A DNA stretch of 60,884 nucleotides, filler included, from Catajapyx aquilonaris (lineage: Eukaryota), in NCBI GenBank assembly GCA_000934665.2. It is 2 parts of 2 records of this genome, joined end to end, with 100 filler letters (N's around TTAATTAATTAA, not from the genome) between each part and the next. Parts side by side here need not be neighbours in the genome. Positions count along the whole stretch, not along the records: positions 1 to 30,450 come from JYFJ02004647.1; positions 30,551 to 60,884 come from JYFJ02004648.1. One strand, 5' to 3'. The notes under the pieces were generated by a model, which did not search any database, had not been told where the DNA came from, and was given only the letters and a program-made list of their open reading frames with translations. Shown here one piece after another: positions 8,480 through 60,522 of the stretch (position 1 is the first letter of the stretch; each line of letters begins with the position of its first letter). The position numbers and the translations under genes were made by a program.

Positions 8480-9300
8480 TCTATACTCTTAACAACATTC
8501 AGAAAAAAATTATGGACACTCCCAAATGTGATATTGTGTTGATGGAGTCAGTCCATGCATCAGCAGACAAAGAAAAAAAAAACTCGCATGATTTCACATT
8601 TGCCAGGAGCTTTCATTACGTAACAGGTTTCATCCACACTGTCGGAGTTTCTTTCTTCCAGGCACCTGACGTTTTCTGGCTAGAAATTTCACAAAGTTGT
8701 GAAAAGCCACTCTTATCAATGCCAAATGGTAAACAGTGTCCTCAAATTATAATTATTTGCAGATGTAAAAATTTCTGTGTGTCTGTCTTATAGTGCAGAG
8801 GCAGGAAAAATGAGTGCGCCACTGGGGTTAACAATAACAAGTTACAATGTGGTTGTTTATGTAGGCTAGCTTAAAGCTCAGGGAATGTCTTCATGATGCC
8901 TGTATGTGATTGTGCACAGTTGCATTGCATCAGTGAATAATTCGGCATGGTAACTTAGCAATCTTTGAAATGTTGGTTTCAAATGGAATATCTACCCTAC
9001 AGGTTGCGAAACCTTAATTATTATTGAATCGATGCATTTCAGAAGCCATTTTCATATCATATGTGACATAAATTATTGACCAGGAATTTCGCTGGTTCGG
9101 CCATTGCTTGCATGATTCAGGGCAGTTTGGTGTTGGATGGAATTTTGAGCAAGGCTGTATAACTCTTGGAATGCACGAGAGGCAATGGAAGTGGTTCTTG
9201 GCCAGTCGGGGTCTCGCTTTCTCCACGAGGTACCCAAATATCTGATGGCCCTCCTCTTTCCCCGGACAACCTCCCTAGGGAGCCATTCCTTTTGTCATGC
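8480..9300 (-). pseudogene. Possible KDZ (Zisupton-like) transposase N-terminal relic
   Basis: Frameshifted pieces HFHCLSC, NNYNLRTLFT and CLLMHGLTPS..NITFG resemble the CxC and first-Asp region of KDZ transposases. Confidence 0.3.
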
Positions 9301-9667
9301 CTCTTCTTGGGGACCAACACAGAAATGCTGCATCAGTTCTCGTTGCACTCCCGTCATGTTGCGGTAGGTGGACATTTGTGCAGGAGTGATGACGGCTGTT
9401 GATCTGGCAGGAATGGCCTCTCTTTCCTGTAGTTCAGGCGGCATAAAGTTGACGGGTGGTCCTGCGTCGATGAAGGCCCAAAAGTTAGTACAGGGGGTAC
9501 AAGGAGATGATGAAGCACAATGCAATCACGTCCATTGTTCCGTGATTATATTACACAGGTATCTCTCAGAAACTGTAAGAACTCAACTTAAAGTGGTGAC
9601 TTCTTTGACAGCCAAAGCAGAAATGCCATCAAATGTTTGTGTAGACTGTAGAGCAATGTTTCCTCCC

Positions 9668-10047
9668 TTATGCTTTTAGGAACACATTGACAGAATAATT
9701 GCCACCTCCAAAAAGCTCTCTACACATTGGCTGGGTTAGTGTGACAGTATTATTTACTGTGGTTTCGAGTAACCTCTTAAGGCTGTAAGCGATATTCTTC
9801 GTTGTACGTGTGTGATTCAATATTTTTCCAAGCCATACAATTAGGCCACCAGACTGGCTTATTTGCTTCCTGGTTTCCTCCCAGTGATTTTTTAATATGA
9901 TTTTACTCGCTGAGCAGATGCTGCATTTGAAGTCATCAGCATCCATGCACCTTTCGTGAAACACCCTGTGACAGGTGTTGCAGTCGACCACGTGGTTTCC
10001 TCCCAGTGCTATCATGTCTGGAATAAATGACAGCAGCTCCTTCTGCG
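9668..10047 (-). pseudogene. PHD-finger-containing ORF fragment, copy 1
   Basis: GGNHVVDCNTCHRVFHERCMDADDFKCSICS fits the C-terminal three-quarters of a Cys4-His-Cys3 PHD finger. Confidence 0.7.
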
Positions 10048-11100
10048 TCATCCTGTGTCATCCAGTAGTAAAAGGATGTCTTTTTGCAGATCCTTGTTCC
10101 TACTTTTTCTCCGGAATTCTATTGAACTTAGCTTTGGATCCGAACTAAGAAGTAGCCTGCAGAAAAGTTCTTCGTTGGTTTTCATATGCGAATGTTTTAA
10201 GAGTGTGGTGTCCACAAAACGCCGCATGTCGTTATTTTTTTGCTGCTTGAGTCTCTTCTGATAGTTCTCTAATTGGAATGACTGCGTCCTTAACTCATTT
10301 GGAATGGAGTGATGTTTGTGGATACATCCTGCGTAAATTCTTGGCACAGGTTATCTTCAACGTATTATCCTGGTAAAACTCCAGCACCTTTTTATCCCAC
10401 ACTTTTGTAACAACTATCATAGCAACCTTAGAGTTGTATGTGCTGATTATATTACCCTTGTCACTAACTCAAGAAAACTCAAGAGTGTTGTGCCTGAGTA
10501 CTGATATTAATGACTTAAAGTCGAATAAAATTCTGTAAAATCAAATGTGCCTGAGACAGCTGAAGACAAGCCAAAGTTGATAGGACCTGACCGGGGAGGC
10601 AAATCTTCTTTGTGAAATGCACTGCGCCACCCGTGCGACCATATCGAAAATCGTCGGCTGCACATAACACTGGCCTGTAGGGTTAAAGGGCCAGAAGGAA
10701 TGTTATACGATAAATAACAATCGCAATGCAACAGTAGTTTGCTGTATGTACATTTGCAATCCCCTGTAAGTTGAATGTCAGCAGTAACTTGCGACAAGCC
10801 ACCCTAGATATCCAATCATTGGGGTCGCGACGACCGCATGGACTTGGCCAATATCCACCAATTCGTCCTGCAGCCATTGGCAGCTGCTGGCTCTTCTGCT
10901 GGCCTGTTATCCAATGCGGAATGTTTGGAGGCTCTTGTGGCAAACTGCCCGTCCTTACAACGGATTTGACTTGAATAGGTCCTCCAGTTTTGCTGTGCTG
11001 CGGCTAGCATTGTCTTGTTCTGCTGCCATCACAAAATCTTCAACCCAACGAATGCAGCCAATACGTTAAAAATAACCCCTAAAAGTAACTACTTGAAGCA
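10048..11100 (-). pseudogene. Transib transposase relic (copy Y)
   Basis: Motifs in the expected order: FCDGS (11022-11036), VTADIQLT, NFGLSS (~10570), IPIRELSEETQ (~10250-10280), TNEELFCRLLLSSDPKLSS. These match Transib CDGS / LTMxDGK / FGLS / PIGQLSEEAQE / RLLxSSDP. Many frameshifts. Confidence 0.8.
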
Positions 11101-11399
11101 ATCAATCAATTGAATTTCAGTATTTCCTAGTTCAATTGATACTTTCAGGTACTCTGGTTTGGTGCTAACATAATTCTCCAGTTAGTCAGGTGCAGGTAGT
11201 CTGACTTATTATTCTGCCTGTGAGCCTGGAACCATGCGTCAAGCAGCCATGCTGAATAATATTAAGTTCCTTATACATGGGGGTCATTTTCGAGATTGTG
11301 CTCGCTAGATTTTCTTTTGCATTATGGCTTGGGACGGAGCATCATTGAAGTTTCCGATCAAGAACTCTCTTCTCCTTAGTCGCTGGGCAGCATATTATC

Positions 11400-11800
11400 T
11401 GGTTGAGTTACTCGACTCCCTTGATGAATCGCCGTGCCTTCTCATCACCAGTGTGGGTGAAGTTTCCGAAAGTTGTGACGTGAACAGTCGGGTCACCTTT
11501 ACGGACATTTTGCTGCTTGATAATAAGAGCGATGGGCAATATTAGAGATGATCCCTCATCAGCTGTCCACGCTTGCATTGTAATCGTAACATTTTTCTTC
11601 TGCATGTATCCAGCAAGGCTTGCAGCTCCTTTGGTGAAAGGAAGGAAGGAAATTGACATGCCAAAGGTTCATTGGTTCAGGTGTGTGTATCACATGCGTC
11701 GGGTCGGTCACTGATATATAAATGCTGGAATAACTGAAAAGTTCGGGTATATTTGGTGGACGCATGCAATAATAATTATTTAAAAAATCCAAGCCATTTC
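11400..11800 (-). pseudogene. Possible PWWP-like chromatin-reader fragment
   Basis: QAW..LILPIALII...VHVTTFGNFTH loosely matches the PWWP pattern W-x-PA-x-V-x-FFG. The match is weak. Confidence 0.2.
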
Positions 11801-11949
11801 ATGTGCATCTAGTGGACTGATACACAGGTGCTCCCCAGACGTGTTATTCCCGGTTGGTTTCCACTGGCACAGACCATTCTGTCTTCTCCTAATGTGTATA
11901 TGACCTGCATCTCATAATGCCATCATGCGTCGTTCTTTCCTCCTGTAGC

Positions 11950-13500
11950 CCTTTCCTCTCTCTTTCCCAATCAGCTTACATAAGAAATTAATCAATACTG
12001 ATGCGATTAGCAAATCAGTTGCATGGGTTTAGCGAGGCAGGTTTGAGTGACTATGGATGACAGGTTCCTGGAACAATCGGTGACTTCTCTCATCGTGATT
12101 ATTTCGGTATTACCACCGTTACAGAATCGTCTCTGACCATTTTGGTCCATCCACAGCTTGCTGTTGTGAACACTTGCGTATCAATCTGAGTGACACGGGC
12201 AAGAATAAGTGAAAAGGAAGGATGAGCTGGCATGTGATTGTCATCATCTTCCTCTACTTCGTCACTTGATGAGTACATCTCTTCGTCGTCTTTTTGCCTC
12301 TTTCTTCATTGTCCATTCCCAGACCCGACTACTGTTCAGCTTTTCGATTAGGATATTCCAATTATGGAATCCAGTACCTACGTACCGAGAAGCGATATTG
12401 ATGGCCAGCCCCTAAAAGTGTAACAGCGATTCCAAAGGTGATGGCAGTCACCGGCACCTTAGCTTCCATTCTGGACATGACTTCTGCGCTGCTGGCCACT
12501 AGTACACTCAAGTAACTTAACATTGGAGACATCCATGTCATTTGTCGCATCATTGGTCTTCTCCTAGCTGGCGCGGCGGGCATCAGCAGTCGCATGTTTA
12601 TGATGATGTCACTATTCGGTGATTAGATGTTGATGGAGCCGGGGGCTGTAGATGGCTATGCCGGGTAAGCCCCCTTATATACATATCTAATACTAAAGTC
12701 GCATCTCCTGTTCAAGTTATAACAGCAGATTATAATTTCTTGAAGACCCAGGCGATATTTTCTGTTGTGGCGGTCGTGAAACACTCTGTGACAGGTGTTG
12801 CAGTCGACTACGTCGTTTCGCCCCAGTGCTGCGCATTATCATGTCTGGAATAAAGGACATCAGCTCCTGCGTCATTCTGTAAAGGGGCTTGTCAAATTGA
12901 CGCAGCAACATCGGCGAACTGGGTTTTTTTATTCCGGCCCATGACAGCTGCAGAGATATGCGAAGGACAATGTAAGCTAAAAAGACACGAGTATTAATAT
13001 TGTGAAATTTTGGTGCACACATAATGTCTTCCAACAATCACGATTATGTGTGCTGCTGTTCGCAGGTAAATTTTTTCTGCGCTGGTATCTGTCAGAAACT
13101 GCACCTCCGTCGCAGGATGGATTCCAATAGCAGACCGGAGACAGGATGATCGCCCCACAAGTCGGAAAAACATTGGGTGTGGAACTCTCGTTAATGATGG
13201 CAGGCACCGGAAGATTCATTTCAACTTTTTGAGTTGTTGGGAATGAGTACACTGGTAACTCAACATTGGAGCCACCCATACTATTTGGGTTACTATCCAA
13301 GCAGGCAGCAGAGGACTGTCTGAACTGCTGAAAAGTTGGGGGGCATGGACGTTATTGTCACTGTCGAGGTGTGGTAAATCAGATAGGCCAGTGATCTAGG
13401 TATGTTCGTGTCGTCGGGTATTTTACAGACAATGTGATGATTGGGTCTGTAATCATCTGTAACTGCCAGTACAGCAGTGGCGTATCGATTCTTCTATTGT
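11950..13500 (-). pseudogene. Transib transposase relic (copy X), interrupted by a PHD fragment
   Basis: Motifs in the expected order: SCDGGAVSDRYQ (CDG at ~13105-13115), NMRLLM..TNDATN, AITFGIA, AVDGPK, GGNT..RLFQEP. Confidence 0.65.
12720..12957 (-). repeat. PHD-ORF fragment, copy 2 (partial)
   Basis: Near-identical DNA to 14330-14512 and homologous to 9955-10050 (LLRQFDKPLYRMTQELMSFIPDMI). Confidence 0.8.
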
Positions 13501-14077
13501 TCCTGTGTAATGACCCCTAAATATTCACTTTCCGGAAATATGCTTTCCAACTCGTTTAATACGGTAGCTACGTTTTATTGTTGCAGCGTCGGCCTCAGGG
13601 CAAGAGGGATTCCCCGGCCCTTGATATTTCATCCACAATTGCCGATATGCCATTAGGTCTGGCACCCCAGACCCTGCAGTAGTGGGATGAGAGTAACATT
13701 CTTCGCAGGAAGGGAGGACACCAATGGGACAAGGGAGAAGACAGCAGAGACCAAGGCCCTTCTTCGTCTTGTCCTTCATCCCGGGAACTGTCGTCTTGGA
13801 CACGAAGACGAGTTCCTCTTCTTGTCTATTGGGGACACCGTCTTGCCTATTGCATATAATGAGCTAGTAATATTCATTCACGGAGATGCAATGTGCTGCT
13901 GGTGTGCTCGGTGTTGCATCATACCCATTATGAAGCACTTGATCGAATAGACCTAAGTGTATAACCTCCAATGATGACAATGATCCTCCCGAGAGACACA
14001 TAATGGGTATATGCACGGGGATGGCCTTCTATTCCCACATTGACATGGCTCGTATATGCACTTTGTAACCTTCATGG

Positions 14078-14142
14078 TTAGGATATTCCAATTATGGAAT
14101 CCAGTACCTACGTACCGAGAAGCGATATTGATGGCCAGCCCC
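14078..14142. repeat. Exact 65-bp duplicate of 12348-12412
   Basis: TTAGGATATTCCAATTATGGAATCCAGTACCTACGTACCGAGAAGCGATATTGATGGCCAGCCCC occurs at both positions. Confidence 0.95.
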
Positions 14143-14512
14143 AGCTGTAGGCGATATTCTCTGTTGTACGCGTGTGTGATTCAATATTTTTCCACGCCAT
14201 ACAATTAGGACACCTGACTGCCTTATTTGCATCCTGGGTTCCTCCCAGTGATTTTTAAATATGATTTTACTAGCTGAGCAGATGCTGCATTTGAAGTCAT
14301 CAGCATCCACAGGCGTTTCGGTGCACCGGTTCGTGAAACACTGTGACAGGTGTTGCAGTCCACTATGTCGTTTCCTCCCAGTGCTGCGCAATATCATGTC
14401 TGGAATAAAGGACATCAGCTCCTGCGTCATTCTGTAAAGGGGCTTGTCAAATTGACGCAGCAACATCGGCGAACTGGGTTTTATTATTCCGACCCATGAC
14501 AGCTGCAGAGAT
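14143..14512 (-). pseudogene. PHD-finger-containing ORF fragment, copy 3
   Basis: YCAALGGNDIVDCNTCH(fs)..RCTETPVDADDFKCSICSASKIIFKNHWEE. Homologous to 9780-10050. Confidence 0.75.
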
Positions 14513-14547
14513 CTCTGGCTACGTGGTCTTTCATCATCATCATGTGG

Positions 14548-14800
14548 TCAATGGCTGTTATGTAGGACAGCACAGGCTACAATAATTATGAGGCTCGTCT
14601 CCAGCTTTGTCCTCAACTTCATGCTCAGGCACGCGAACCCCATTTTCCACATTCCAAATGCGCATTCCACTCCCATTCTGGTGCTGGATAAAGTATCATT
14701 GTAGCGGTGCTCAGCTCTGGTGGTGGGGTTTCTCACTGTGGTGAGTAGGTATGGCAGACTAGTATACCCAGCATCTCCAATGAGGTGGCCTTGTAGTGCG
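14548..14800 (-). pseudogene. PIF/Harbinger DDE transposase C-terminal fragment (HARBI1-like)
   Basis: GHLIGDAGY..LPYLLT.VRNP...EHRYN...STRMGVECAFGMWK..FACL...IIVACAVLHN. Confidence 0.93.
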
Positions 14801-15480
14801 CCTGAATGAAGCTGCGATTCTTGTGCCCTCAATTCAAACATCAGCCTATGGGGACTGCTTAGTGTCCTTTCCATTGTTGCACTGTTTACAAATCGAACGA
14901 CACTTATTTGCTCAACACGCTGTAGTAGTAGCAGACTGTAACAGACTGCAACAGACTGCTTTTCCACAGTACCGTTATATGTGTGGTTGACCAGTAACAG
15001 GAGTCACGATAAGAACACGTCTGTCAACTCCGAAGTCCCAAAACAGAGTGGCTGGGGCCTGGGGGGCCTCAGTCGGGCCCGTGACAGCTTAAAATACCAT
15101 ATGGGTAGCTTTCTCAAGTCAAGGACGTTCAAAATACTTTGGGGTTGTTTGTGAAGAAAATTGGCAAAAATACATCTCTCCCAACCCCACTACCTTCAAA
15201 TTGAGCCGCATTCCTACCGAGCGTAATCCCCAAAAGGATCCGCATGGTCAGAAACCGGTGCGGTGTTGCCTAGTTCGGACGCCGATACACGACCAATGCG
15301 GTCTGTGCCATTCCTGCAGTGAGCAGGATGATGGCTTGTGTTCCGCAAGTAATTATACACTGCAAAAAGGAGGTTAAAAGCAAAAACCGATAACTCCAGT
15401 TTTGGTTGTTGTTTATCAGTGGTGCCAATAACTCCATGGACTTTTTATGAACAAAGTAAAATAATTTCGGTTTTTTTAAA
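14800..15480 (-). pseudogene. SWIM / YqaJ (lambda-exonuclease-like) accessory ORF relic of ISL2EU-type elements
   Basis: LLFAV..KPSSCSLQEWHRP (post-SWIM SCTxxxQxWHxP motif) is followed by MERT..FELRAQ(fs)RIAASF (YqaJ WxxxRxxRITAS motif). Confidence 0.5.
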
Positions 15481-16899
15481 CGAGGTCCTTACTGCTGCCG
15501 TCAGATATGAGAAGACCGTAACTCAATGTCCACTTCCCCTTGCGCCCTAGGAAAATGCGAGCGGAGCGAGGATTTTACTAGTGCACATGGTTAAATCCAT
15601 GAGCTCTTCAGCCCGAGACGTGTTTCCGTCACTCTTCTTGTGCTCTTGTTGCATCCATCTGTAACAAAATAGTGAAGTTTGTAATTCTAATAGTGCACAT
15701 TTAAAAAGGAGCAAATGCAGATGTAACTGCCTGAATACATTATATGTCTCTTCAAAGACATCTCATCTTCTCCTTCAGGCATTTTCCTGCTGGTGGTGGT
15801 ATCCACATGGAGAGTGGCTTGGGAGGCCGTTTTTTTTTTTTCATTGACGTTATTTCTGAACCCGGAAAATGCCGTTTTCTCTCATTTTTAAATTTGTCAA
15901 CAAGCATCTGCTTCCACGGCTCCTATATATGTGAAACAGAAACATTAAAAAGATTGCTAACAGGGAGATTATTGTTATGAAATTCAGTACTTAATAAATG
16001 AAAAAAAACACGTAGAGAATTACTGCATTTTATAAATTACCAACCCATTCATTCCCGCCAGGATTTTTCATTCCCCAATGCCCATGTTTTTTGATCAATT
16101 ATTTTGCCACTTCCGTGTACTGGGCTGACGTGGGGTAGCTGTAATGACGTATACACAATGACGGTATTTCATTAGGATTAAAGGTCATTTTCTGCAGGCT
16201 AGTCTATATTTAAAAAGGGGAAGAAACACTTCTTTTAATTGAAGTGGGTGTGCACTGTAAATATGGTAGTCGTCAACCAAAATCTTGAACTTTTAACGCA
16301 CTATGGGCAAGATACAGTGTCGATGCTTAGGTGTAAAAGTAAATGTTTGTAATGTCCGGTTGTCTTTCTTCTCACCTTACCTTGGCATACAGCCAAAGGA
16401 CACACTTGGTCAGTTCCCTCCACAGTCTTTTTGTTGCGGACTGGGTCAGGTAGTGTATTTAATTTGTAAGTTAACAAACCTCAGAGGAGCAGCAAAGTCC
16501 TGTTACATATGCATAAATTCACAGTAGAATTGATTGCTATTAACAAACCTAAAAAAAATCCAGTTTGCCTATTCGTTGACCAAAGGGAAGATCCATTAGC
16601 AGTAGTTAACAAAAAATTGCTTTTGAAATTTGACCAAAAGCTTAGAGTCACGCTGTATTAAGGGACGTTCTTTGCTACCATAAAACGGGGTTGGAACTAG
16701 TTTAGGTCTACAAAGTCCTAACTTTATGGTCATTTAATGCAAAATTAATGATATATTGGGAGTTCATGATTGTGTCATACCTGCTGCATTTTCTCCTTAA
16801 CATCTGCCAACCGAGACAGTTGCCAGTTGTGTCCAATCAGTGTCAACAATCAATCCAAAAATTGCCCCTTGGAACTTGTCAACAGCTTCTCCTGAAATA

Positions 16900-17350
16900 A
16901 GACACAGTAAAATNAAATGTTACCCAGGATAAGCAGCCAAATGTAAGGTTTTTTGGTCCTGGACGGTCCTTGCATCTCATAACCATGTAACTGTCGGAGT
17001 CAGTGCTGCATACGGTTATGGCCGCAATCAATCAAAGTATCCAACCCGGAAAGGATGGTTGTCATCATTGTAAATTGTGTCTAAAGTGTGGCTCCATGGG
17101 TTTATCGCAGCATCCCTAACAATAGCACACTATGGAGAACAGATTTTCCAGTGGATCTTGGATCAGCCGGGATATGGGCAGGTGACTCAACACTTTCCCG
17201 ATCGAAGTCATTCCCCCCAAAAATACGACCGCTCTGATGTTCAAAAAGTCCTATAACTTCACTGGGCAACGTCTTTATCTTTTTCCCTGGCTGTTGTCAG
17301 TTGGTAAAAGGAAGATTCGCATTTCTCGGGATGATTTATGAGTAATTTCC
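16900..17350 (-). pseudogene. P-element (THAP9-like) transposase C-terminal relic
   Basis: SRLIQDPLENLFSIV...GCCDKP (~17100-17175) matches the P-element motif RLxQDPLENxFSxIRxxGGxxDNP. Confidence 0.8.
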
Positions 17351-17799
17351 TCTGTACCGTGTTGTCTTTGTTCCCGATCGTGAATCCAATTCTTCTTGGT
17401 CTCGGTCGATCTACTGTGAGACCAAAACGTTTCTGAATATGCCGCTTATCCTCTTGAGTTAAGTGGCAAGCTCGTACTAAGGAAGGCCCAACTCAGAGAA
17501 GTTCGTGCGAATTTCTCCACATCACGAATGTCTTCCTCTTGTCATATTCATCCTCGTTTGATGGGTTGTCTTATCATTCCATGTCCACTTCTCTTGCAGT
17601 TTCTGATGATGATTGGTTGGAGGGATCTGCATCGGAATCCGATTCATTCCTCAAACAGCTGCAAATTCCGTGGACTTTGTCCGGATTTAGGTCGCTCTCG
17701 CCTAAATAACGCCCGTACATTGGCATGTTTCTCCGTGTTCGCCCCATTTTTCACTGGTTCTTCGTCAAATAGAAATCTAAATTAAGTTGTCACTGTCGG

Positions 17800-18260
17800 T
17801 TGTCTTCAATCTTGATTGGCATTGCAACACGCCAGATAATGTTGTTGGGCTTCTCTAGGAAAGACACTGATTTGGTGACATTCTTGTATGGAGGCCATCA
17901 GGAAGTAGACGATCCACCTTTTACTAGTGCAGTCCAAGTGCTTGGCACAGCATCAACTTTACTGCTCTCGATGTGAAAAGTTTCAATGACACCTCAACTG
18001 GCAGGCAATACTAACATAAAATACTAAAGAAGAGTACCTGCTTAAAGGACTTCAGTGACCGCATATGTCGTCACAAGGGTTTTTTCCCGTGGCTAGTAGC
18101 GAAAAAATTTCACTCCGCCCTGAATTGAAAGTGTCCAATGGAAGCCGAGATTTCTCAGATTTCTTTCTGTTCTTGTATTGTGAGGTGGCCCCATCACTGA
18201 AAATCATTAATGGTGCAAAATAATTCATTGTGCTGGGCCAGGGCATCTGGGCGTCAGTCG
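17800..18260 (-). pseudogene. Sola2-type transposase relic
   Basis: IFSDGATSQYKNR and ATGKNPCDDICG match SDGAxxQYKN ... SHGKGPCDGIGG. Confidence 0.75.
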
Positions 18261-18700
18261 ATCCCACAATTGGGGAGGTGTGGTGGTGACTTGAAGCAGT
18301 CGACCACGACTTGTTCGTTTCTTGAGGTTCAGGATTGGAAACGGTGAGTTTGGCTCCAGGTTTTCCTTGTACCGGATGGCGTGAGGATTGGCCTTGTAGC
18401 TATTATGGTCCTCTTGTCTTGGTCTGTGTCGCGCAAAAGGAAGTGATATTGCATTAGTACTGCCAGTCTCACTCTGAAGTGCGGTAACACCGTAAACAGC
18501 ATTGGCTGAGAGGGCAAGCAGAAATAAATTTTTGCTGTGCACGATACTGTATTTCTTGTGAAGAGAGACATCCGCAAGCCGTCCATATCGATATGGTTGG
18601 CGCGTCCAAAATAGATGAGTTGGGAAGAAGACCTTGCAAGTGCGTCTGTCAAGGTGTCCTGTGGACGGAAGATGACAGTTTGCCGGTTTTGATGCACATA
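18260..18700 (-). pseudogene. CACTA/EnSpm-like transposase relic
   Basis: HIDMDGLRMS, FLLRD.. and SHHHTSPIV resemble the NxDGL / CDxPAR / HHxxSPL motifs of animal CMC-EnSpm transposases. Confidence 0.4.
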
Positions 18701-19549: not shown

Positions 19550-20100
19550 TTGTCCATAGGAATTCGTCGCAATTTCCACGGCTCAGAGGTCAAAAATGGC
19601 AAGGTCCACTTGGAAAACCTGGTCGTAAAATGAGCAAACACCGATGATGAACTTTCAGTGGTACAATCTTGAACCTTTTTATGTCCATATTTTTCCGCAG
19701 TTAAGCGACATACGGAAATGTGCAAATAATATCCAATGATATTAAAATGAATAATTGTTGCACGTATTTGTGTTCCACCCTCCAAAAGTGGACTTTGCCG
19801 TTTTCGATCTCAGAGCCCTCAATTATTAAACAATTGCGTGGTAGGTAAATTGTTATGTTTTCAAAAGTTTTGTCATCAAATCACTTTTATCTGCCACACA
19901 CTCTATTATACAATCTGTATCAAGACTTTGAAGTATTTCTTTCTCGACTACCATAAGCATGAATGCTTCCAGGTGGTCTTCAGTGAGAGTACTTCGAAGT
20001 CTGTTTTTTTACAAACTTTAATACAGAAAAACTTCTTTCGTAGGCTACTTGCGTGAAAGAAAGTGTTAGCATGGATTTGTACGCAACGCCTATCTTACAA
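19550..20100 (-). pseudogene. Possible Ulp1-like cysteine protease relic (transposon cargo)
   Basis: YHWIL and (C)xVFAxF pieces are in the right order but heavily frameshifted. Confidence 0.3.
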
Positions 20101-20545: not shown

Positions 20546-20589
20546 GTCAGGATATTATTGATTCAAATGTACTCTTACTTCCATATTTT

Positions 20590-36397: not shown

Positions 36398-36399
36398 TT

Positions 36400-50299: not shown

Positions 50300-50871
50300 A
50301 AATTGTACATGACAATCGTTTGATATAGTACAGTATTATACAGTAAATTTGGTATGAAGCAAAAGTGAGTGGGTCAAAGGGAGGTGGGCGTATTTCATTC
50401 AGTATTCTAAACTGCAGTTGATCACCCAAGACACTATACTGTCTCTTTTATCATTACGTAAAAGTTTATGCAAATTGTGGGGGAAATGCAAAAGGCTTTT
50501 AGTCCCATACATGGCAGCATGCTATAAGTCAATGTTGTTTATTATTGACGGATGGAATTAAAATTGATCTTCGTTTCAGATGAATCATCACGGTACATAA
50601 TAGGTATACAGTTTTATATGGTAATTTATTTCTGACTCAGTTTATTATGGGCAGGACCCTTTAAGACGTTGGTCTGACTACAGTCATGTGGTCTGCCAGC
50701 CAATTTGAACTGAGGTAGTTCTCCTGGATAAGCTGTGCGTGTACGTCGTTGGGAATCTGCACATTGTCGTAAGGATTCATTTTTTTCTGATATCATGATG
50801 GGTCCCAGCGACTTCACCATGTCCACGAGATACTCCGTTGGGCCATACCCACAGAGTTGGCGAACCCTCAT
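50300..50871 (-). pseudogene. Polinton/adintovirus-type phospholipase A2 (parvovirus VP1-like) relic
   Basis: AYPGE...N..GP..KL (50640-50735) then INNIDL*HAAMY (~50508-50545) resemble PGExH..N..GPxT.L / INxLDxAAxxHD. Confidence 0.55.
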
Positions 50872-50959
50872 CTTACCCCTCCAACCAATGTCTATGGCGC
50901 ATTAGTCCATAAACAACAGTCATTTTCAGTCCAATCCGTGTAACCGTGTGGTAAGTAAA

Positions 50960-51330
50960 AGGACTTTAAAATGAATTATTTACAATAATTGTACCATGTG
51001 GCAATCAACCCATGCGTAAATAAACGATAATTTGGCACAAGCTCTTACTAATGTTATAATCGCATGATTGATACCGGTCATTAATTCTTTGAAATGAATA
51101 CATGTTGCTTACCAAGTGTGTACCGCAAGTATTAGGCCAAGCTACAGTACATTTTAAAAATCTCACACGCACTTTAAGCACCATTGTTGCTCATGTTAAG
51201 TACTGGCTAAAAATAATGGATTTGTATTATTTGTCACGTTGCAACACGGGATTGATGGATGGAGTAGCATATCTTCTTTGTTCCCGTATAGCCAGCATCA
51301 CCGTCGTCTGTCATGGGGAGCAAAAATGTT
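50960..51330 (-). pseudogene. Polinton/adenain-type cysteine protease relic
   Basis: DML..PCCNVTNNTNP...QW and INDRYQS...LC..Y..MG resemble DxLP..IxNTD...HW / NxxxxQS...C..Y...G. It lies next to the PLA2-like piece. Confidence 0.45.
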
Positions 51331-51749
51331 TGAAGATGTTCTCATTCTCGCGAGAACAAGTAATTTGCTTGGTGCATACTTTTATTTGGACACGGCAATT
51401 TTGTGTGTCCATGAACTAATGTTGATAATCCCATTTCTCCACCGTCCCCATCCGTGATTCACCCTCTTCCCGACCAACCTCTTCTTCCACCTTCCGCCTC
51501 CTAATATGTCCCGAACTTTCAGACGGAGCGGTATCCTCATGTACCGGGGAGATTCCTGCTCTAAGAATGTCTTATTACGCACAATTCGTGCACACCTTAT
51601 CCGGACCAGACTCGTCGCGTCGTTGTCTTAATAATTGCACGTCGAACACTCCTGAAAAGCAGTGACTCGGTCGTAAGTGGGGTTTAATAAATGTTTAATT
51701 AATATACATACAATGGACAGTATAATGAAAAGCAACAGGTAATCCATTT

Positions 51750-52420
51750 AATTCAAAGGGACATCGATATGCGGAATGCATCTGTTGTTGTTGATCCAGC
51801 GAACACGATAGTTCCCTTTAGTTTTTGCTGGAGATTTTTCATGTTTTTCCGGCTCCGGAGGAAATAATGATCGGTGATATCACACCGTCCAGGGTGGATC
51901 AGGAATGTTATGTCCTGTGGCGCACACTTTGGTAAGAGGCTTCCGCTATTCTTTGGCGTAATGATGACCTCATAAGTGGTATATGACTATAGGTTTGGAG
52001 CATAATGATGAAGCATTGTACGTGGAAATTATCTGGATTGTGTTCAAACATTTCCTGAAAATAAACTGCTTGGTTATTGCATCAGAATCTTGCCTTGATC
52101 TTCCCAATTTATAGGAAGGAAAAGACGATGTTCAGACTTCTGGTGCTGACTCACGGGTCTATGTACTGTCCCATGGTCATTGGGTTTGGGTACTCGTCGG
52201 CAACAGCTAGACTCAGACTCCCGAGGTGCAAGCAAGTAGAACTTACTCTGCAGAAAAATGAGATCAAATCGAAGGTTTTTCTAGTTTCCTTTAAAAGTTC
52301 TGTTATCTCAACTATCTCATTCAGAGATATTGAACTGATCAGGCCAAATTATCGAATGGTGCCCAAGTAAGTACCTCCAGAAGCTTGATGACATAACCAA
52401 TACTCCTTTGCCATGTCATC
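51750..52420 (-). pseudogene. Zisupton/KDZ-like relic, copy G
   Basis: HQASGGTYLG, LLKETRKTFDL, HHYA, AE...TFL..HYFLR. The DNA TTGGAGCATAATGAT is shared with 48548-48562. Confidence 0.45.
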
Positions 52421-53264
52421 ACCAAAAAATTGACTGCTGTTGCCATTGCTCCATATTCTTCTACTTCGAGTGTCCGGTTGTGTAATGTATTACTGCTCTT
52501 AGAGATCCGGATGGTGACGATTCGTATTTTTCAGGCTTCCCAGTTTTAGGAAAGCCGTTGTTCATTACTCACATCTGGTCATGGTACCTCGGACAGATGG
52601 TGACGCTTGCTTTTGCCTTGACTCATTGCATTGATTATGTTGCGAATTTTGTTTTGTGTAATTATATGACTGATAGCAGTTTTGTGGACAATACTGACAC
52701 AGAAACTTGAGAAGGCACCAATTACGAAGGAATTCACGTGACAGTTGTAATGATAATAATTCTCTGGGAGAAATATGCTATGTAGCGAACAAAATTTACA
52801 AATGGTATTGTTGAGATGCCAGATGATTGTGTGGTATTATTAACTTAATTGTAATTGTTATACCCGTACTTGGATGGATTTTCAGATCTAACGCAATTCT
52901 ATAGGAGAGAAACATTTGGCCAACGAGTAGGGGGCGTCACATTGCAATAAGATGAAACATCAGATGTAGAGTAGCTGCATGCTATTCTGTCTGTCTCTCA
53001 CCACGGTGGTAATGTCACGAATAGCGGGGATCATGGAGGGAAAAAAATCAGCCAACAACGAAGGAGAGCGAGAAAATAATTGGGAAACGATCAATTTTCC
53101 AAGTACAAAAAAATGAGTATTATTCAGCTAAATTGTACCACGAATTGGAACGAGAGAACCATCTACAGTCATCCTCTAGGATGTGAGTATAACTAAAGGT
53201 CTCCACACGTTCTCTTGTGGTCGTCCAATTCTTCAATTCCGGCAGTACTTGTGCCGTCTGGTGG

Positions 53265-53500
53265 TGACCCATGCTACATGCACTACTTGGTCGTATGAAT
53301 CCTTTGGCGAGCAGTTCAGATAATTGCCTCTCAATTCTGCCAGTTCAGATATGATGTTGAAGGCTGTACAGTACACGGTACTGCAACATGGTTAGGCATC
53401 AGGAACCAATTGAATGTCGTTCTCCATGCTGCGAGATGGAGGAAGTCCAGGTGGTGATTCCTCAGAAATACATCGGCAAACTCCGTAGTGTTCTTGAAGC
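53265..53500 (-). pseudogene. Ty3/Gypsy pol fragment (start of reverse transcriptase)
   Basis: EFADV(F)SEESPPGLPPSRSMENDIQLVPDA ... ERQLSELLAKGFIRPSS. Confidence 0.88.
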
Positions 53501-54186
53501 AACCAAGTACATCACACGCCACTACCTTTTTCCTTGTCTCTTCTTGCTGCCACGCCGTGTAACTGCCTTGCCGTTACATGTTTATCTTTCATATTTTACT
53601 GTCGATTCAGGTGAGACGATATTTTGCCTCCTTACACATTCCGTTTTGTCTAGGTGCCTTTTGAACACTTAATTTCGTCGCAGTGATTCATTATACGGTA
53701 TACATACTCTATACACTTTGCGCGACTAATGTTCCAGCCAAGTACACCCAACGATACTTGACCTGACTGACCATCGCGTCTCTGCTGTAAGGCAGGGTGT
53801 GTGGGGTTTATTGTAGGCAATGTGTCGGTTACATTTTCTGTACATTGGCCTTCCTCTTCTTGTCTGATTTCTTGCCCTAATTAAATTTTAGGAGAATATA
53901 TAAGGTGGGGTAATTCGTAACAGTAGTCAATGTACTTGCCATGGCCTTCCTTACTGCGTCTACTACACTCATCTTACTAATTTAATGGCCAGTTAGAACA
54001 TCACAAAAGCGTGTAAATGGCCAATTTTTGTGCGGGTATTGACTACCTAATATTGTATATGATGGGATTAATGATTTAGGTGTCAGCAGCTTCTCCGCAT
54101 TCTTTTGTCTGTGTCTGTTATTGCAGGTTATTCGACACGTTAAAATTCCTGAGCCATAGAGAAGCTTCTTGTGCTGTCTGTTAGAG

Positions 54187-54412
54187 CAGTCCTTTCCAAC
54201 CTTTTTCTGGTCGCGATCCCCTTTTCTGATAGTCAACTAACCTGCGACCTCCCACCCTCCCTCCCCCGAGCGTTAGTAGGTGGTTAAAAAATCCTTCGCG
54301 ATGAAATTTCCAATAAAATTTATTTTAGTAATTTTTTAATTTATAAAAATTACCGCGGCCACACGCGACCCCCCCGGAAAAGGCTTCGCGATCCCCAGGT
54401 TGGGAACAACTG
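54187..54412. mobile_element. hAT-Charlie-type MITE
   Basis: TIRs are CAGTCCTTTCCAACCT / AGGTTGGGAACAACTG. The 8-bp TSD TGTTAGAG is perfect (54179-54186 and 54413-54420). Confidence 0.92.
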
Positions 54413-54429
54413 TGTTAGAGAGTTGAATA

Positions 54430-55350
54430 AAAGTTGATTCCTACTTTATTCCCTTGGCACTTCCTGTTAAGCCTTACAGGGGACTTGGGTGAAAGAATGC
54501 ACCGAGATCCTCACCCCAGTTAGTTTCTTTGAAGGAAAATGTCATATTGTCTCAATGGCTTGTGGCCGTCCACATTTCACAACATTGCAATGATGAAATG
54601 AAATCCAAACACCAAGATATTAATCAACCAGAATAGCGTTATAAACTCCAAATAAATAAGTCCATTCATGTTGCAACTAATTTCCAGAATAAGAACAAAA
54701 GCATAGGAATGAAATGTAGTTCTCCGGCAGCTTCTGATCTTCATTTATCATCAAGGGTGTTTGTACGTAGGCCACATTCTAATGTTATCAAGAAATACAT
54801 AATAATTCAGAAATGGAGTACAAGTATTAATTTCAGCCTTAAGTCCCGCGTGTATTTGTAATATACTTTAAAAGCTAATGATTTAGTGCTTGCTGAAAAT
54901 TTTTTGTTTTGGGAGCAGAGCAGCGCCGTCATTTCATGTCATTGCTTTCCAATACGCGGTTGAAATCTCTCTTGGGTGCGCCCTATAGCGGTGTATGTAA
55001 TCTCGGTATCTGTTTCGTGGCATTCTTTGAGTCTACACTGGCATAATGTATTGACAATCCAGAGGTTGGTCAATGTGATACGTTAGGTTTTCTGATCCAG
55101 AAGCTTGAGTAGGTATGACAGAGGCTTCCCTGCACAGTGCGTATGTTTTCTTGACGTGGGATAAGCAGTACTCGTCAGACATTGGTCACAATGATTATTT
55201 GATCTGCATCATTAGACTCTTTTTTTCACAATGGAGCTCGTCTTCCTCTTTTTGGAAATGGGTTCGCTTCATGTCTAGCGCACCAGGGAAGGTGGCCAAA
55301 GCCACATGACCTAAGAGAGCCCCACCTTGGGCAACGATTTCGTTCACAAT
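54430..55350 (-). pseudogene. Degraded retroelement integrase
   Basis: LGHVALAT..LHCEK (HHCC-like), MSD..LC..PTQASGSE (core), and a possible GPY/F-region piece, in order. Confidence 0.4.
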
Positions 55351-55826
55351 ATGAATCATAGCTTTGATTTTTGTTAACACACCGAAACATGTACGTCTTC
55401 ACTAATGTGCGAAAAAGGGAATGCTAACACTGGATCATATTTAGATAAGACTTGTCTTACTGTGCATGAACTCACTAGAAATCGTTGTACAATTTTCTAC
55501 TGGATATGAATGAAATTCACTGTATATGGGTCCCTCTCTGGTTGTTAAACACGGTTTCTTCATGTGAAAGACGAATGAGCTGGATATTTCGGGAATATTC
55601 GGAAATCTGGATGCTGAACGTACCCCTGCGTACTGTGCTGCTTCATGTGCAGAGGACTACCCTCAAAATGATGGAAATGAAGCGAGGAGACCCGTGTCCG
55701 CTCCAGGGCCACTTACCTGCTTCTGTCATGCTCATCGGAGGATGGGTTCATAATCATTAGCTAATGTTTTGTATGTGTTTCCTCATGAATGCCTCATGCT
55801 GCATCAATATTCCCTATGCCTTGTAA

Positions 55827-56060
55827 TTACGAAAATATAAGCACCCATTTTTTTGGTTGCCGGATGATGAGGTGTATGTCGTCCACTGCGCCACAGCACA
55901 TGGGAAACTGATACCTGGCTTTAAAAATCTTGTGATATTTTGATGAAATCGTCAGCAGTTGGATTCTGAGGAAGGCGCTTAAGGTGATAATGGAGTACCG
56001 TAGTTCATTCAATAACTGGTCAAATGTGTCGGGTGACAACCTAAGAATTTTCTGAAATAG
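55827..56060 (-). pseudogene. PIF/Harbinger transposase N-terminal fragment
   Basis: SPDTFDQLL and FKARYQFPMCCGAVDDIHLIIRQP match FPxCxGAxDGxHxxIxxP. Confidence 0.85.
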
Positions 56061-56624
56061 TCAACCCTTACCAGGGTTCTCACCTTCCTGAGTGGCTCTC
56101 TGTCTCATGACTTGAATCTGCTCAGGAAAATGGCCCTGATAATGCGAAAAATGGCCAGCAAACACGAGCTGGATATTTCATGAGATTGAAATGTGAAACG
56201 TTTTCATTAATCTCAAAGAATTAAATGTACGGCTTCCCATACTGCCAACGAAACCTTATGTACTGCACAGCGTCGTCAACAGACCCTACGCGCTTATCAA
56301 TTAATTAACGTGTTAGGGAGAGGCTGTTACATCTTTGGCGAATTTGTGTCTTGGTTTTTCATTATTATACACTATGCGTATGATGTATGCTGAACTTGTG
56401 TTTTGCGCTGTTACCTTACATTTCCCAGTGTTTTGTGAGGCCGTGTACCTGATCATCCAATGTGTCCATTTATAGTGAAAAATTGACTGTACTGCATGAT
56501 CAGCAAGAGTCTTGCGAACTTACTGGTCTTGAACACGGTTCATTTAGTATTTTAAATAAAACAATGCGATTAAATATATTTCCATGAGATACTGCTGTAA
56601 TTTTAAAATATTTCATAAATCTGC

Positions 56625-56712
56625 ATAATACTTGTGAAGTGTGTAATAATACTTGTGTGTAGTACTTGTGTGTAGTACTTGAAGTGTGTAATAATACTTG
56701 TGAAGTGTGTGA
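56625..56712. repeat. Minisatellite
   Basis: Variants of ATAATACTTGTGAAGTGTGT / AGTACTTGTGTGT in tandem. Confidence 0.85.
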
Positions 56713-57479
56713 AGATATGTTCTATACGAAAAGCTATTTTAAGGTGTAGCTATTATTACTACTTTCCAAAAAGCAGTGATTTGCACCCGTACACTTCGGA
56801 AGTAGAGATCAGTTGCAATTATTGGAATAATTCTGATTACTGATCGGTCGTCAGCGGGAGAATAGATGAGCTTCTTCATGCAGTTATATTTTTTTTGTAA
56901 GTCCCTGATTTGTGATTGCACAGAAAGCATGCTTTTTGTTATGTATTTTTTTCTTTCCCTCTCATAGAAGAAAATTTGTTCCGTGTTCGGCGTGTCCTCT
57001 GTAATGTTCTGTCATTTTTGGGAATTGAATAAATCCGGGTGCTGATGTTTGTCTGCCTCAGGAGCCTTTGACCTTGATTATTACAAATTAAGCGGCATAG
57101 GAATGAACTCGACGGCCGCAGAGTAACCTCTGGTGTGCCAGCCTTAGTCATTATGGTTATCAGTAATGCATTTTAATAAGAGAGGTGCTGTGTTTCTCGA
57201 GCAGTAGCCAGATTATTGATCGTGATTGTTGGCAATCGCCGCTCCGGAGTAGCAGTCTCATGATTATTTTAAACTCGAAAAGCGCAGGCAAGGGGCTGCA
57301 CACTCCTTGGAGTGGAGGTGATGTCTTGCTTGGTTTCTAAACAAAGTCATGAGTATAATACAGTGTTGGCTCTGTTGATAATAATTCGGACTTGTTTATC
57401 AAACGATGCACATATAATCATATGTTGAAGTAATAATTCTTTCCAATAGGCATTTGACGGTATAGTATATCCACGTGGA

Positions 57480-60300
57480 AAATTAGCTTCCTACGATGAT
57501 GTCGTCCTTAGTAGAAGTTGATAGTGTAGTTCAGGATATGACACATTTGCATTCTGCATCGCATGCAATATATTAATACAATCAGGGGCATGAGTATTCC
57601 TAATATGGTCGATGCGTATGGGATGTTAATTTCCTCTTCCTTCGCCAAGCGTTGCATTGGTCGTGCTTCGTCCTTCTTGACATGTGTAGGTGTGGATATG
57701 ATTCTTCGAGCTTCAGTCACGGATGACTTCATATAAAGTGTGATAAAATCAATATTCATCGCATTTTTTTTGGATCAATGTCCTCTAGGAAGTGGTCATT
57801 TTTCGCATCCCATGAGAAAATGGGGGACAGAATGTGTACTATTTTGCAGCACCAAGATGTCTTCGGATGTTTAAATTCATGAAATGGTATGTGTTCCAAT
57901 GCAGTGATGTGATATTCTGCCTCTTAACTAGACCACGAGAAGAGGAAGGAATAATCACCATTAGTTTTCGTTCTGCACGCGCTTTAAGAAGAGCGTTTCG
58001 GATTCGCACAATAATTCCAATATCTACTTGCAATGTCACTAATTTAATGCCTTGAACTGATTCAAGCAAAATAATTTCATAAGCACTTAAATGTGTCACG
58101 CATATTATGTGCCGAATTTTCAGTCGAACATTACGAATCTTCTCAGTAGCAAATATTGCATGCTCTCTTGTTGATTGTTGAACTCAGCTGTTCTCCTCAT
58201 TCATCTTGGAGCTGTACGATACACTCGATGTGATGAAAGTGTTACATCTCTTCGCTGCTCTCATGGCACCTGTTGGACAGCTCGGAAGTGAAGTGATGTG
58301 AAGTACTTCAACTAGTCTTCTGATTAGTCCGGTGTATTCACTACTGCCTAGCTGCATTTGCCACTGGGCAGTCGCGGAGGTAATGGCACCTGGATGCTCT
58401 CACTCGCGTTCAAAATAGTGCAGGTCATTCAGATTTGCATAAGAAAATACAGGTTGTGCATGGTGTGACTGAAGATTATGAGAACTTACGGATCACTGTA
58501 GCACTTACTATACGCTTACATACGTCTACAGGTGTATCAGCCACATTTTCAGGGTTTGCTGATGCATTTGAACGTGTCACCCACTCCTCATCATCTGCGT
58601 CGTTCCCAGCATCTTCGTATTGTCCTCCCTGCGCTCCTTGTTGGTTTCTCATCATTTGACATTTACATTGATGTGGGGGAGTTGAATATAAAATGTACAA
58701 CATAAAATAAAAGAATAAAATAAGTGCATCATGTACATTGCTGCGGCGCGACATACTTTCCATCATCTCCGTCTTGATTTAGTTTCCATTTTATCTGAAA
58801 TGCTGATCTCGAGTCGAAGACACCCATCCAGAAGCTAAGTCGCCCTTTCCTTATTAAGGATTTATTTCTCCATCAACTCATGTGATGTTGAGTGTGCATG
58901 TTTATTGGGATGTTTATTGTTAATCGTAACTGGATCATACCGTTGTGCAGTGTCTTGTGAAGTTCTCTGCGATCTACTGCAGTTGGTGATGAATCATGTT
59001 GTAGGTTCCCAAGTGTCATGAAGATTTGTTTTCTACTATTATGCACACGTGGCTGTTTTGGTCAGATAGCTGGAACAAGCCAAGTGATCTAACTTTTACC
59101 TTCAGGCTTTGTCTACACCACGGCCTGGTATAATATACCGTACAAGGTCATCCCGAGTGATGGTAGGTTCACCTTGATCAAACTGCAACTACTTCTGAAG
59201 CTTGTTCGCCTCATGTAGATTTTGGATCTGCTCTTCGTTGTTGGCTCGCAAGTCGGGAAGAATATCTGACCACTTTTACCTTTGGTTGTGGCCTGTGTAA
59301 TAATATGGAGTTTTGAGATTAATTAAAATCCGACCGGAACACCTTCCGTCGACCACAGACAAGAACCATGCCGGAGAGAATCAAATATTCAAGATTATTG
59401 ATCGCGTGAACTAGTAGTACTGCGATTTTCTAAGCATCTATGTCATTGACTCGATATTACAAGGGTTTGTCTTTTAAGATGTGCAACTCGGACCACTTTT
59501 TTTTTCTCAGCCCTCCCTTATCTTCGTGTCTGCTACGGGGTGACCAATATGACTTGGCTGGTACTTTATTGGAAAGGAAACGTCGTTCTTTTGGTCTGTC
59601 AACATTGGATGCGTTGTGCCCTTTTGGGTTATGTGCCTGCAAAGCTCTAATCCAAATGAGCCCCGTGCGTTTTAAATTGTCGGGCAAGTGCAATGGTCGC
59701 TGCTTCCGTTTTATTACATATACCATTAACTGGGCAGTTAACAACCAAATTCTAATATTTTCATCTGCTACGACCCAGTATCACTGTGCTTACTGGGACG
59801 CACAGAATGTAGTTTCCAGCAAGTTCATTTCTATCAGTTCCTGACCAGGCAAGGTCTGGATGACGAGCAAGTTACTTCCACATTATTTTAGTCAGTCACA
59901 AACGTGTGTTGAAAAAGAAAAGACCCAGACCCCATGTTCTGCTTCATCAGTCATTCATGGGGTTAAAAACCTGATGTTAAAAGTTGAGGGATGTGTGCGG
60001 ATACTAATCCTGGTGGACATAAGCGTGATGTATTTTTCCTACATTTATTTGATGATTAACAGAGCAAGTGTTGGTCATTGAAATATCACCCCATTTAAGT
60101 GCAAGTCAGCTCGTACTCAGCTTCACTCGAAATTTTCTTCTACTGTGATAATCATAACACACCGCAGCCAATGCCGCAATCAGTGATAAATATTCTTGAC
60201 AATAAAGTTGAAATGTGTCCTTTTTATCGGATTCAATAATTACATCTGTAAGAAATGAGGCACATGCGATTAAACTAGTGATAGTTCAATTCAATCACTG
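57480..60300 (-). mobile_element. Old Gypsy-like element: RT/RNase H relic followed by a possible env relic
   Basis: HP.FN.RF...TD..HG.W (RNase H start, ~59930-60000), KWSDILP (~59255-59278), and downstream a hydrophobic anchor-like STILGILMPLIVLIYCMRCR. Confidence 0.35.
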
Positions 60301-60522
60301 GTAAGAGAATGACGAGATTGTTTCCTTACATCTAAGATCCCTTACTTCCCTGGTTGTTATCCATTGGGAGATGCTACAATCATATAGCCGCAGAGGCTAA
60401 TATGATGTCATGCTTTATCCTTCATAAGTGTGGTATATGTTTCTTAGCTAAACAGAAGCTCCCAGACAGCTGGAGTACGTCGATAGTAACAGTAACTTCA
60501 ATTTATCGATTGATACTGGCTA

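Follow-up and report, generated by a model that had tools for sequence, protein, structure and literature searches.

Strand-polarized transposon relics in a long T>A-skewed domain of the Catajapyx aquilonaris genome

The window analyzed here is a 60,884-nt stretch of Catajapyx aquilonaris DNA (assembly GCA_000934665.2) composed of two records joined by 100 filler letters, with JYFJ02004647.1 at positions 1 to 30,450 and JYFJ02004648.1 at positions 30,551 to 60,884; the region under study is 8480..60460. It carries a small set of decayed transposon-type coding relics, spanning 9.7 to 31.8 kb (∼22 kb) and reading on the minus strand. They include a Harbinger DDE transposase, two DUF6729 copies, an MADF domain, a Gypsy integrase, and a weak Tc1-like DDE domain. 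The relics were sought with Pfam in 841 frames of at least 40 amino acids on both strands, of which 369 are stop-to-stop open reading frames (ORFs) of at least 60 amino acids (189 minus, 180 plus; E<=0.01) and 472 are ORFs of 40 to 59 amino acids (233 minus, 239 plus; E<=0.05). The interval from 8.4 to 60.5 kb was also translated through stop codons in all six frames and scanned (24 frames), although these long chunks are less sensitive, as illustrated by a zinc finger that falls from 42.8 to 26.2 bits. Rfam and tRNA scans gave no matches.

The Harbinger/PIF-type transposase relic (14095..15150, minus strand) retains the DDE domain's C-terminal half and, beyond one stop, a Cys-rich tail, with a DDE_Tnp_4 match at 5.7e-14 (ORF 14551-15003, minus) and at 5.6e-12 in the read-through frame. 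Inspection by eye suggests that a different frame upstream, to about 15150, holds the N-terminal half. Self-matches reveal two further partial copies of the tail, both on the minus strand. The second copy (12720..13037) stems either from a further insertion or from local duplication in the recent past (12774-12957 is 95% identical to 14331-14512, and 12348-12412 is 100% identical to 14078-14142, both direct), and the third (9671..10057) is older (9782-10056 is 84.5% identical to 14144-14435, direct). The string DADDFKCSIC is present at both 9914-9943 and 14278-14307 (minus), and there is a weak Nrf1_DNA-bind match (2.3e-4) at 9780-9902 (minus).

The DUF6729 transposase-like relics are both on the minus strand. 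Copy a (21160..21773) matches DUF6729 at 4.6e-25 (ORF 20987-21733) and spans residues 132-350 of a 657-residue relative by tblastn. Copy b (25559..26507) is distributed over three frames, with matches of 3.6e-13, 9.2e-22, and 1.7e-6 in three ORFs within 25924-26507 (minus), and spans residues 64-373 of the same relative at 48-54% identity (tblastn). The two copies are 80.5% identical over 550 bp in direct orientation and have no common flanking similarity, and they thus look like separate insertions. In the Atlas, the DUF6729 relative gives weak leads to Mutator-like transposases (scores 0.79-0.82), and a literature search for DUF6729 found no paper. These relics may correspond to what the earlier note on this DNA listed as Zisupton or MULE.

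Three further relics complete the set. An MADF (Myb/SANT-like) DNA-binding domain at 23770..24078 (minus; MADF_DNA_bdg 8.2e-9, and 1.1e-6 on read-through) may derive from a transposon, or it may be a host pseudogene. The interval 24770..25130 (minus) probably represents a DDE relic of Tc1/mariner type that a frameshift has divided. It has weak DDE_3 (E 0.005) and DDE_Tnp_ISAZ013 (E 0.18) matches, together with two minus-strand strings, VVQDNCSIHTA (24957-24989) and DFPPKSSDLNPIE (24869-24907), which we take to be Tc1/mariner motifs and which lie about 37 residues apart across the frameshift; the DDE_3-type catalytic domain of Tc1/mariner elements has DD(34-37)E spacing. No PDB match was found for this piece. 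The Gypsy-type integrase C-terminal relic (31131..31807, minus) has adjoining rve (5e-5, 31313-31807) and SH3_Tf2-1 (8.4e-4, 31131-31337) matches, and its upstream side is ended by a high-copy short repeat. It is accompanied by no detected Gypsy reverse transcriptase, RNase H, or LTR. The DNA contig spanning 31044-31799 is covered to a depth of about 26, and loose ends fall at 31774/31775.

Other coding fragments are more difficult to assign. A weak USP/UCH-like His-box fragment at 29554..29913 (minus; UCH 4e-4 and 1.6e-3), whose best PDB sequence match is USP8 (E 0.47), may be of transposon or host gene origin. A decayed C2H2 zinc-finger fragment at 35331..35624 (zf-H2C2_2 4.9e-11, and 8.7e-6 on read-through) is the only strong plus-strand protein match to Pfam. 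PDB searches with four minus-strand queries and two plus-strand ORFs gave nothing significant, and no homologous proteins were found for the minus-strand frames 27932-28378 and 18055-18399. The latter has no usable match in the Atlas, and its single match among protein representatives, to a repetitive light-harvesting-type polyprotein, was judged spurious. Candidate relics with a "DG...QYK" motif occur on the minus strand at 18.2 kb and at 22.0 kb and are outside the relic count.

All transposon-type coding relics detected among the 841 ORFs and 24 read-through frames are on the minus strand, with none on the plus strand, and they occupy six loci, or eight if the two extra Harbinger tails are included. 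In the plus frames of 8401-31802, six read-through proteins have no Pfam families, and the minus frames carry the transposon families; from 31.8 to 60.5 kb, 12 read-through frames have no transposon family on either strand. The earlier proposal that transposon fragments here are strand polarized is thus upheld by a profile-based strand tabulation, which identified no comparable plus-strand fragments. The polarity is real, but the underlying inventory is much smaller than was first stated. The earlier counts were about 20 relics to the left of the gap and over 10 to its right, whereas we find the six to eight loci in total and only the Gypsy integrase on the right. Of ∼13 superfamilies proposed, about five are supported; Transib, P, Helitron, Polinton, YqaJ/ISL2EU, and MULE proteins are all represented by Pfam models, but none of these families was matched at E<=0.01-0.1 in the 841 ORFs and 24 read-through frames. 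The description of the content as mainly DNA transposons holds for the Harbinger, DUF6729 transposase-like, and weak Tc1-like relics, but the scans did not recover the rare superfamilies. The probability of one shared orientation (2 x 0.5^n), previously given as 2 x 0.5^20, is far from that value when recomputed, at 0.06 (n=5), 0.03 (n=6), or 0.008 (n=8).

The relics are sparse and old. Recognizable relics, in a count of coding remains, make up at most 11% of the region, and they have 45-54% amino acid identity to their nearest relatives, with stops and frameshifts. Much of the remainder is anonymous, and 32380..46793 is mostly single-copy DNA with old direct duplications (64-81% by self-blastn, all direct) and no Pfam family except the zinc finger. 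The duplicated blocks pair 33.3-35.1 kb with 36.4-37.9 kb, 32.4-32.9 kb with 43.9-44.3 kb, and 39.7-40.3 kb with both 43.2-44.7 kb and 45.4-46.8 kb. Almost everywhere in 30.5-50.5 kb, and across the Gypsy piece too, word depth in X1 DNA reads is ∼37 (single copy, 31-letter words). Contigs from a second run (X5, of unknown kind) fall within 30551-50550 on two high-copy repeats only and have loose ends, and the uncovered parts are uninformative as to expression. A sequencing-run search with 12001-22000 returned four DNA runs from one study and no RNA run.

All 23 internal repeat pairs within the region are direct by self-blastn, which, like the base composition described below, lends independent support to polarity. 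It is conceivable, if doubtful in our judgment, that the one-way arrangement reflects chance and local duplication in ordinary untranscribed intergenic DNA with no strand-specific function, and that the compositional skew is a product of replication or of some other mutational bias acting regionally. Independent insertions are few, and four to six events would share an orientation with a probability of 0.03-0.125, in a window that is one of very many screened. Many of the repeat pairs form colinear blocks separated by a few kilobases, as expected from unequal crossing-over. Given the 95-100% identity between 12.3-13.0 kb and 14.1-14.5 kb, some "relics" arose by copying and do not represent insertions of their own. 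The two DUF6729 copies, however, do not fit this pattern, and the window has nine inverted repeat pairs (self-blastn), all of them outside the region, so local duplication here is not always direct.

Base composition weighs further on this question. The whole window (1..60884) is a domain of T>A asymmetry on the plus strand, with an AT skew of -0.081 overall and negative values in 55 of 60 1-kb bins, and the domain extends past 8480 and 60460 to include the flanks. The skew is the same inside relics (-0.087) as outside (-0.086), which indicates a regional cause and not the makeup of single elements. A one-sign skew over 60.9 kb similarly calls for a regional cause beyond chance insertion, and its direction matches the relic orientation, a coincidence expected only half the time if the two were unconnected. 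Poly(A) signals are depleted on neither strand (AATAAA, 44 observed and 44.2 expected on the plus strand; TTTATT, 51 observed and 55.3 expected), as would be anticipated for untranscribed DNA. Polarized substitutions in three-copy repeats lean weakly to T (of 234 changes, 73 are to T and 55 to A). This spectrum is unlike the transcription-associated substitution pattern of mammals, and because of this and the small counts we do not use it as support. Transcription is reported to be associated with an excess of T over A on coding strands (PMC5786239).

We favor, tentatively and with somewhat less than even confidence, the explanation that the window lies within a long Pol II transcription unit on the plus strand, for example in an intron. 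The relic orientation, direct repeats, skew, and single-copy state are observed; that the DNA is transcribed, in which direction, and that orientation has been under selection is what we infer. The window would then be old, mostly single-copy noncoding DNA within a long plus-polarized domain that received a few transposon insertions in the distant past, which have since decayed in situ. Insertions whose splice or termination signals are antisense to the host transcript would be better tolerated, leaving survivors that point one way; later local duplication would have copied pieces head to tail, and a strand-asymmetric process, probably transcription-associated mutation, would have generated the T excess everywhere on the plus strand. 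The complete minus-strand orientation of the relics (6-8 of 6-8) and a skew that is negative in nearly all bins and indifferent to relic boundaries are consistent with this, and sparse, old relics are as expected of intronic or intergenic debris. Antisense transposon bias in introns is documented in two reports (PMC3088655, PMC3517506). In the first of these, the bias is mainly of LINE and LTR elements and DNA transposons were excluded from the analysis, so the bias here exceeds what the literature predicts. Several observations fit a transcribed intron less comfortably. Pfam identified no plus-strand exon, although short exons would escape such a search and the scaffold ends at 60.9 kb; the skew, at 8%, is several times the 0.8-1.8% reported for Drosophila introns, although it agrees in direction; plus-strand AATAAA is not depleted; and the lean of the polarized substitutions is only weak.

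The relic orientation, direct repeats, and T excess would be equally well accounted for by the plus-strand precursor of a piRNA cluster as by a giant plus-strand intron. A uni-strand (flamenco-like) cluster, in which a long plus-strand precursor would yield antisense piRNAs and silencing insertions would be retained, is to our minds unlikely. It is favored by the uniform orientation of at least five unrelated families, by the exclusively direct repeat pairs, and by the agreement of the skew with sense transcription of the plus strand. There are also precedents in three reports: Aedes unidirectional clusters hold transposons in (nearly) one direction (PMC3259105), ∼55% of Anopheles clusters are unidirectional (PMC4662822), and flam-like loci in Drosophila were found by strand bias alone and then validated (PMC10643416). 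We note, however, that the relic-bearing part is only ∼22 kb, with little of the region recognizable, and that 31.8-60.5 kb is without a transposon relic. With 30.5-50.5 kb nearly all single copy, any piRNAs from there would be without close genomic targets. Age and damage set the relics apart from the recent insertions that make flamenco effective, and a single Gypsy fragment contrasts with the Gypsy-rich loci described in PMC10643416. The undepleted plus-strand AATAAA counts against a long precursor as well, and introns probably cover far more of the genome than clusters do, although this is a rough guess and not a measurement. Judged from the sequence, the more specific proposal that the scaffold is part of a large, non-dipteran uni-strand piRNA cluster of mainly DNA-transposon content (Harbinger, DUF6729, and Tc1-like relics in place of Gypsy elements), with its 8% T>A skew imprinted on the sense strand of the precursor by heavy and long-lasting germline transcription, is quite improbable.

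The two transcription-based explanations have different implications. If small RNAs were to confirm a cluster, it would be a uni-strand cluster beyond flies and mosquitoes, composed mostly of DNA transposons, and strand bias together with compositional skew could flag such loci from sequence in unstudied arthropods. A giant intron would instead reflect the ordinary antisense survival of insertions, and would be a caution that one-way arrays in genomes with huge introns are no evidence of piRNA clusters.

The locus resembles flamenco and the flam-like Drosophila clusters (PMC10643416) in having one-way fragments over tens of kilobases, oriented opposite to the inferred transcription. The flam-like loci extend over 227-1085 kb, with a high density of LTR/Gypsy elements and small-RNA validation, whereas the locus here has ∼22 kb of relic-bearing DNA, relics in at most 11% of the region, and one Gypsy fragment among mostly DNA-transposon types, and is known from sequence alone. 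It shares with uni-strand clusters a single orientation, in small numbers (6-8 of 6-8, all within 9.7-31.8 kb). Such clusters are also typified by 24-32 nt small RNAs with a 1U bias from predominantly one strand, by one long precursor with a discrete promoter, and by close copies of transposons that exist elsewhere in the genome, whereas word depth here indicates single-copy DNA over nearly all of 30.5-50.5 kb. The mosquito unidirectional clusters (PMC3259105, PMC4662822) were defined by mapped piRNAs, and PMC3259105 reports no clearly raised transposon density in them, so sparse relics would not by themselves disqualify the present locus. The likeness to the antisense bias of long introns (PMC3088655, PMC3517506) lies in one-way survival and a sense-strand T excess, but flanking exons are not seen, the elements are of DNA-transposon types, and the bias is total, not a statistical excess. 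The skew is ∼8%, compared with about 1-2% for Drosophila (PMC5786239), and a T>A skew this pervasive would merit genome-wide attention under either reading.

All of the recognizable transposon relics (decayed coding remnants) in the window lie on the minus strand, so the strand polarity described in the earlier note is real, but the inventory behind it was overstated. Every stop-to-stop frame on both strands of the 60,884 bases (43% G+C, with two 44-base N runs in 30451-30550) was compared with Pfam, giving 841 ORFs in total: 369 of at least 60 aa (189 minus, 180 plus; E≤0.01) and 472 of 40 to 59 aa (233 minus, 239 plus; E≤0.05). Transposon-type matches among these are confined to the minus strand. 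To the left of the gap (the filler between the two joined records), the minus-strand matches are DDE_Tnp_4 at 14551-15003 (5.7e-14), MADF at 23770-24078 (8.2e-9), and two copies of DUF6729, at 20987-21733 (4.6e-25) and, in three frames, at 25924-26507 (3.6e-13, 9.2e-22, and 1.7e-6), together with weak matches to Nrf1_DNA-bind at 9780-9902 (2.3e-4) and UCH at 29554-29913 (4e-4). To the right are the rve match of a Gypsy integrase at 31313-31807 (5e-5) and the adjoining SH3_Tf2-1 at 31131-31337 (8.4e-4), both also minus. On the plus strand, the only strong match is to a C2H2 zinc-finger fragment, decayed and with three fingers, at 35331-35624 (4.9e-11). A test of 841 ORFs should by chance yield Pfam matches of ~1e-3 or worse, and unrelated ones of that strength are scattered over both strands.

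Because stops break up old relics, we also used read-through translation, in which 8401-31802 and 31801-60512 were each translated in all frames, with stops as X, yielding 24 proteins and treating both strands symmetrically. The minus frames of the left part match DDE_Tnp_4 (5.6e-12), MADF (1e-6), rve (1.7e-3), and, in three frames, DUF6729 (3e-24, 5e-26, and 2e-20), and the six plus-frame proteins of 8401-31802 match no Pfam family. In the right part (31801-60512), the zinc finger is the only family in the plus frames, and the six minus-frame proteins match none. Long read-through chunks are less sensitive, with the zinc finger dropping from 42.8 to 26.2 bits, and gain little over the ORF scan. 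The 841 ORFs and 24 read-through proteins include no transposon match on the plus strand. Right of the gap, where more than 10 relics had been claimed, the Gypsy integrase alone is found, and recognizable relics, including weak and motif-only ones, occupy 5,798 bp, or 11% of the region (8480-60460) proposed as a piRNA cluster.

The Harbinger tail is present in three direct minus-strand copies (9671-10057, 12720-13037, and 14095-14547), and self-comparison shows the copy at 12.3 to 13.0 kb to be 95 to 100% identical to that at 14.1 to 14.5 kb, of which it is therefore probably a local duplicate. The Harbinger DDE domain is followed by one stop codon and then by this Cys/His-rich tail with a recurring ...CNTCHRVFH...DADDFKCSIC..., which resembles a PHD- or zinc-ribbon-like module in appearance and matches only C1_1 (E 0.008). 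The two DUF6729 copies look like separate old insertions, as they are 80.5% identical over 550 bp, have flanks without mutual similarity, and align to positions 132-350 and 64-373, respectively, of a relative of 657 aa, to which they are 45 to 54% identical; an Atlas search links this type weakly to Mutator-like transposases. The MADF relic could be a host pseudogene. A minus-strand motif pair spotted by eye, VVQDNCSIHTA (24957-24989) and DFPPKSSDLNPIE (24869-24907), ~37 residues apart with a frameshift between them, is what we take to be a Tc1/mariner mark. Short read-through pieces of this locus match DDE_3 (E 0.005) and another DDE family (0.18), a PDB sequence search returned no match, and the Tc1-like relic is counted as a sixth, weakly supported locus. 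A DG...QYK(N/K) motif occurs twice in minus frames (18169-18195 and 22003-22029), is absent from the plus strand, and may mark a profile-less transposase family; these relics are left out of the count, as homology searches found no relative. The UCH match at 29554-29913 (minus) includes a USP/UCH-type His-box-like string, YQLRGIV..H.G....GHYVAY, and is a candidate host-pseudogene or transposon piece.

The families supported number about five (Harbinger, DUF6729 type, MADF, Tc1-like, and Gypsy), the relics amount to four to six independent transposon insertions, or eight loci if each fragment counts, and the ~30 relics from ~13 superfamilies of the earlier note were not reproduced. We calculate a probability of 0.125 (4 insertions) to 0.008 (8 loci) that all share a strand, replacing the 2 x 0.5^20 previously given. 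It is possible that chance suffices for relic orientation alone, with the number small and very many windows scanned. All our weightings come from an approximate Bayesian calculation whose base rates are guesses; in it, chance combined with local duplication, in DNA that is not transcribed, is an unlikely reading, and it leaves unexplained a one-signed 60.9-kb skew that agrees in direction. Sensitive self-comparison finds 33 repeat pairs in the window: all 23 within 8480-60460 are direct, one further direct pair extends slightly beyond 60460, and the nine inverted pairs are all outside the region (seven in 625-7243, two in 60647-60777). Many of the direct pairs form colinear blocks separated by a few kb and so amount to perhaps 8 to 10 events, and tandem-type duplication yields direct repeats anyway.

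The G+C-rich left flank, preceding 8480, contains a large foldback whose inverted arms (2459-2950 and 4140-4632; 84% identity) enclose almost perfect palindromes (2968-3094, 3099-3549, and 3547-4136, this last at 91%); 625-750, 2050-2183, and 6916-7243 are noted along with it. Pfam gives no match to the foldback, which may represent either a foldback element or a locus for hairpin RNA. Just past the region, at the right end, 60621-60778 is rich in G+C and combines tandem units of 26 bp and 43 bp with palindromic structure, and the open frame entering it (60336-60884, plus) is low-complexity.

Plus-strand T outnumbers A all along the window. The AT skew is -0.081 for the window as a whole (left flank, -0.049; left part, -0.084; right part, -0.087), and 55 of the 60 1-kb bins have negative values. 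The skew is equal inside (-0.087) and outside (-0.086) the relics and is thus a regional property, not the make-up of particular elements; it runs past both 8480 and 60460, at odds with the boundaries first drawn. We tentatively favor, at somewhat short of an even chance, a long transcription unit on the plus strand, of which a giant intron is the simplest form and which would produce both the T>A skew and preferential survival of antisense insertions. Antisense orientation bias of intronic transposons is documented in accounts of such elements (PMC3088655, PMC3517506), although the bias analysis as described in PMC3088655 excludes DNA-transposon types, which are those concerned here. Counting against an intron are the totality of the relic orientation bias and the lack of AATAAA depletion in plus-strand sequence (44 copies against 44.2 expected), and plus-strand Pfam scans of ORFs and read-through frames detected no exon.

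A uni-strand piRNA cluster with a plus-strand precursor is a further reading, which we consider doubtful, giving it the same weight as chance with local duplication. Unidirectional clusters with transposons nearly all one way are described in Drosophila, Aedes, and Anopheles (PMC10643416, PMC3259105, PMC4662822), and those of Aedes are, as reported in PMC3259105, no richer in transposons than random DNA. The relics here, however, are sparse, old, and broken. Moreover, 31-letter word depth in X1, a DNA read run, is ~37 across nearly all of 30.5 to 50.5 kb, indicating single-copy DNA without close copies elsewhere, so that piRNAs from it would lack targets. Two short repeats (~31775-32096, which adjoins and truncates the Gypsy integrase relic, and ~36150-36375) have depths of ~1000 to 3800 against this baseline and hence tens of genomic copies, and they are all that contigs from X5, a second run, touch in this interval. 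Scans detected neither Rfam families nor tRNA genes, and the right part is anonymous DNA.

The T>A skew of this Catajapyx aquilonaris DNA, ~8%, is several times that reported for Drosophila introns in PMC5786239. Either way the locus is of a known kind, whether antisense transposon survival in a long transcription unit or a unidirectional arthropod piRNA cluster, and a flam-like locus dominated by DNA transposons outside Diptera would, if true, be a modest variant.
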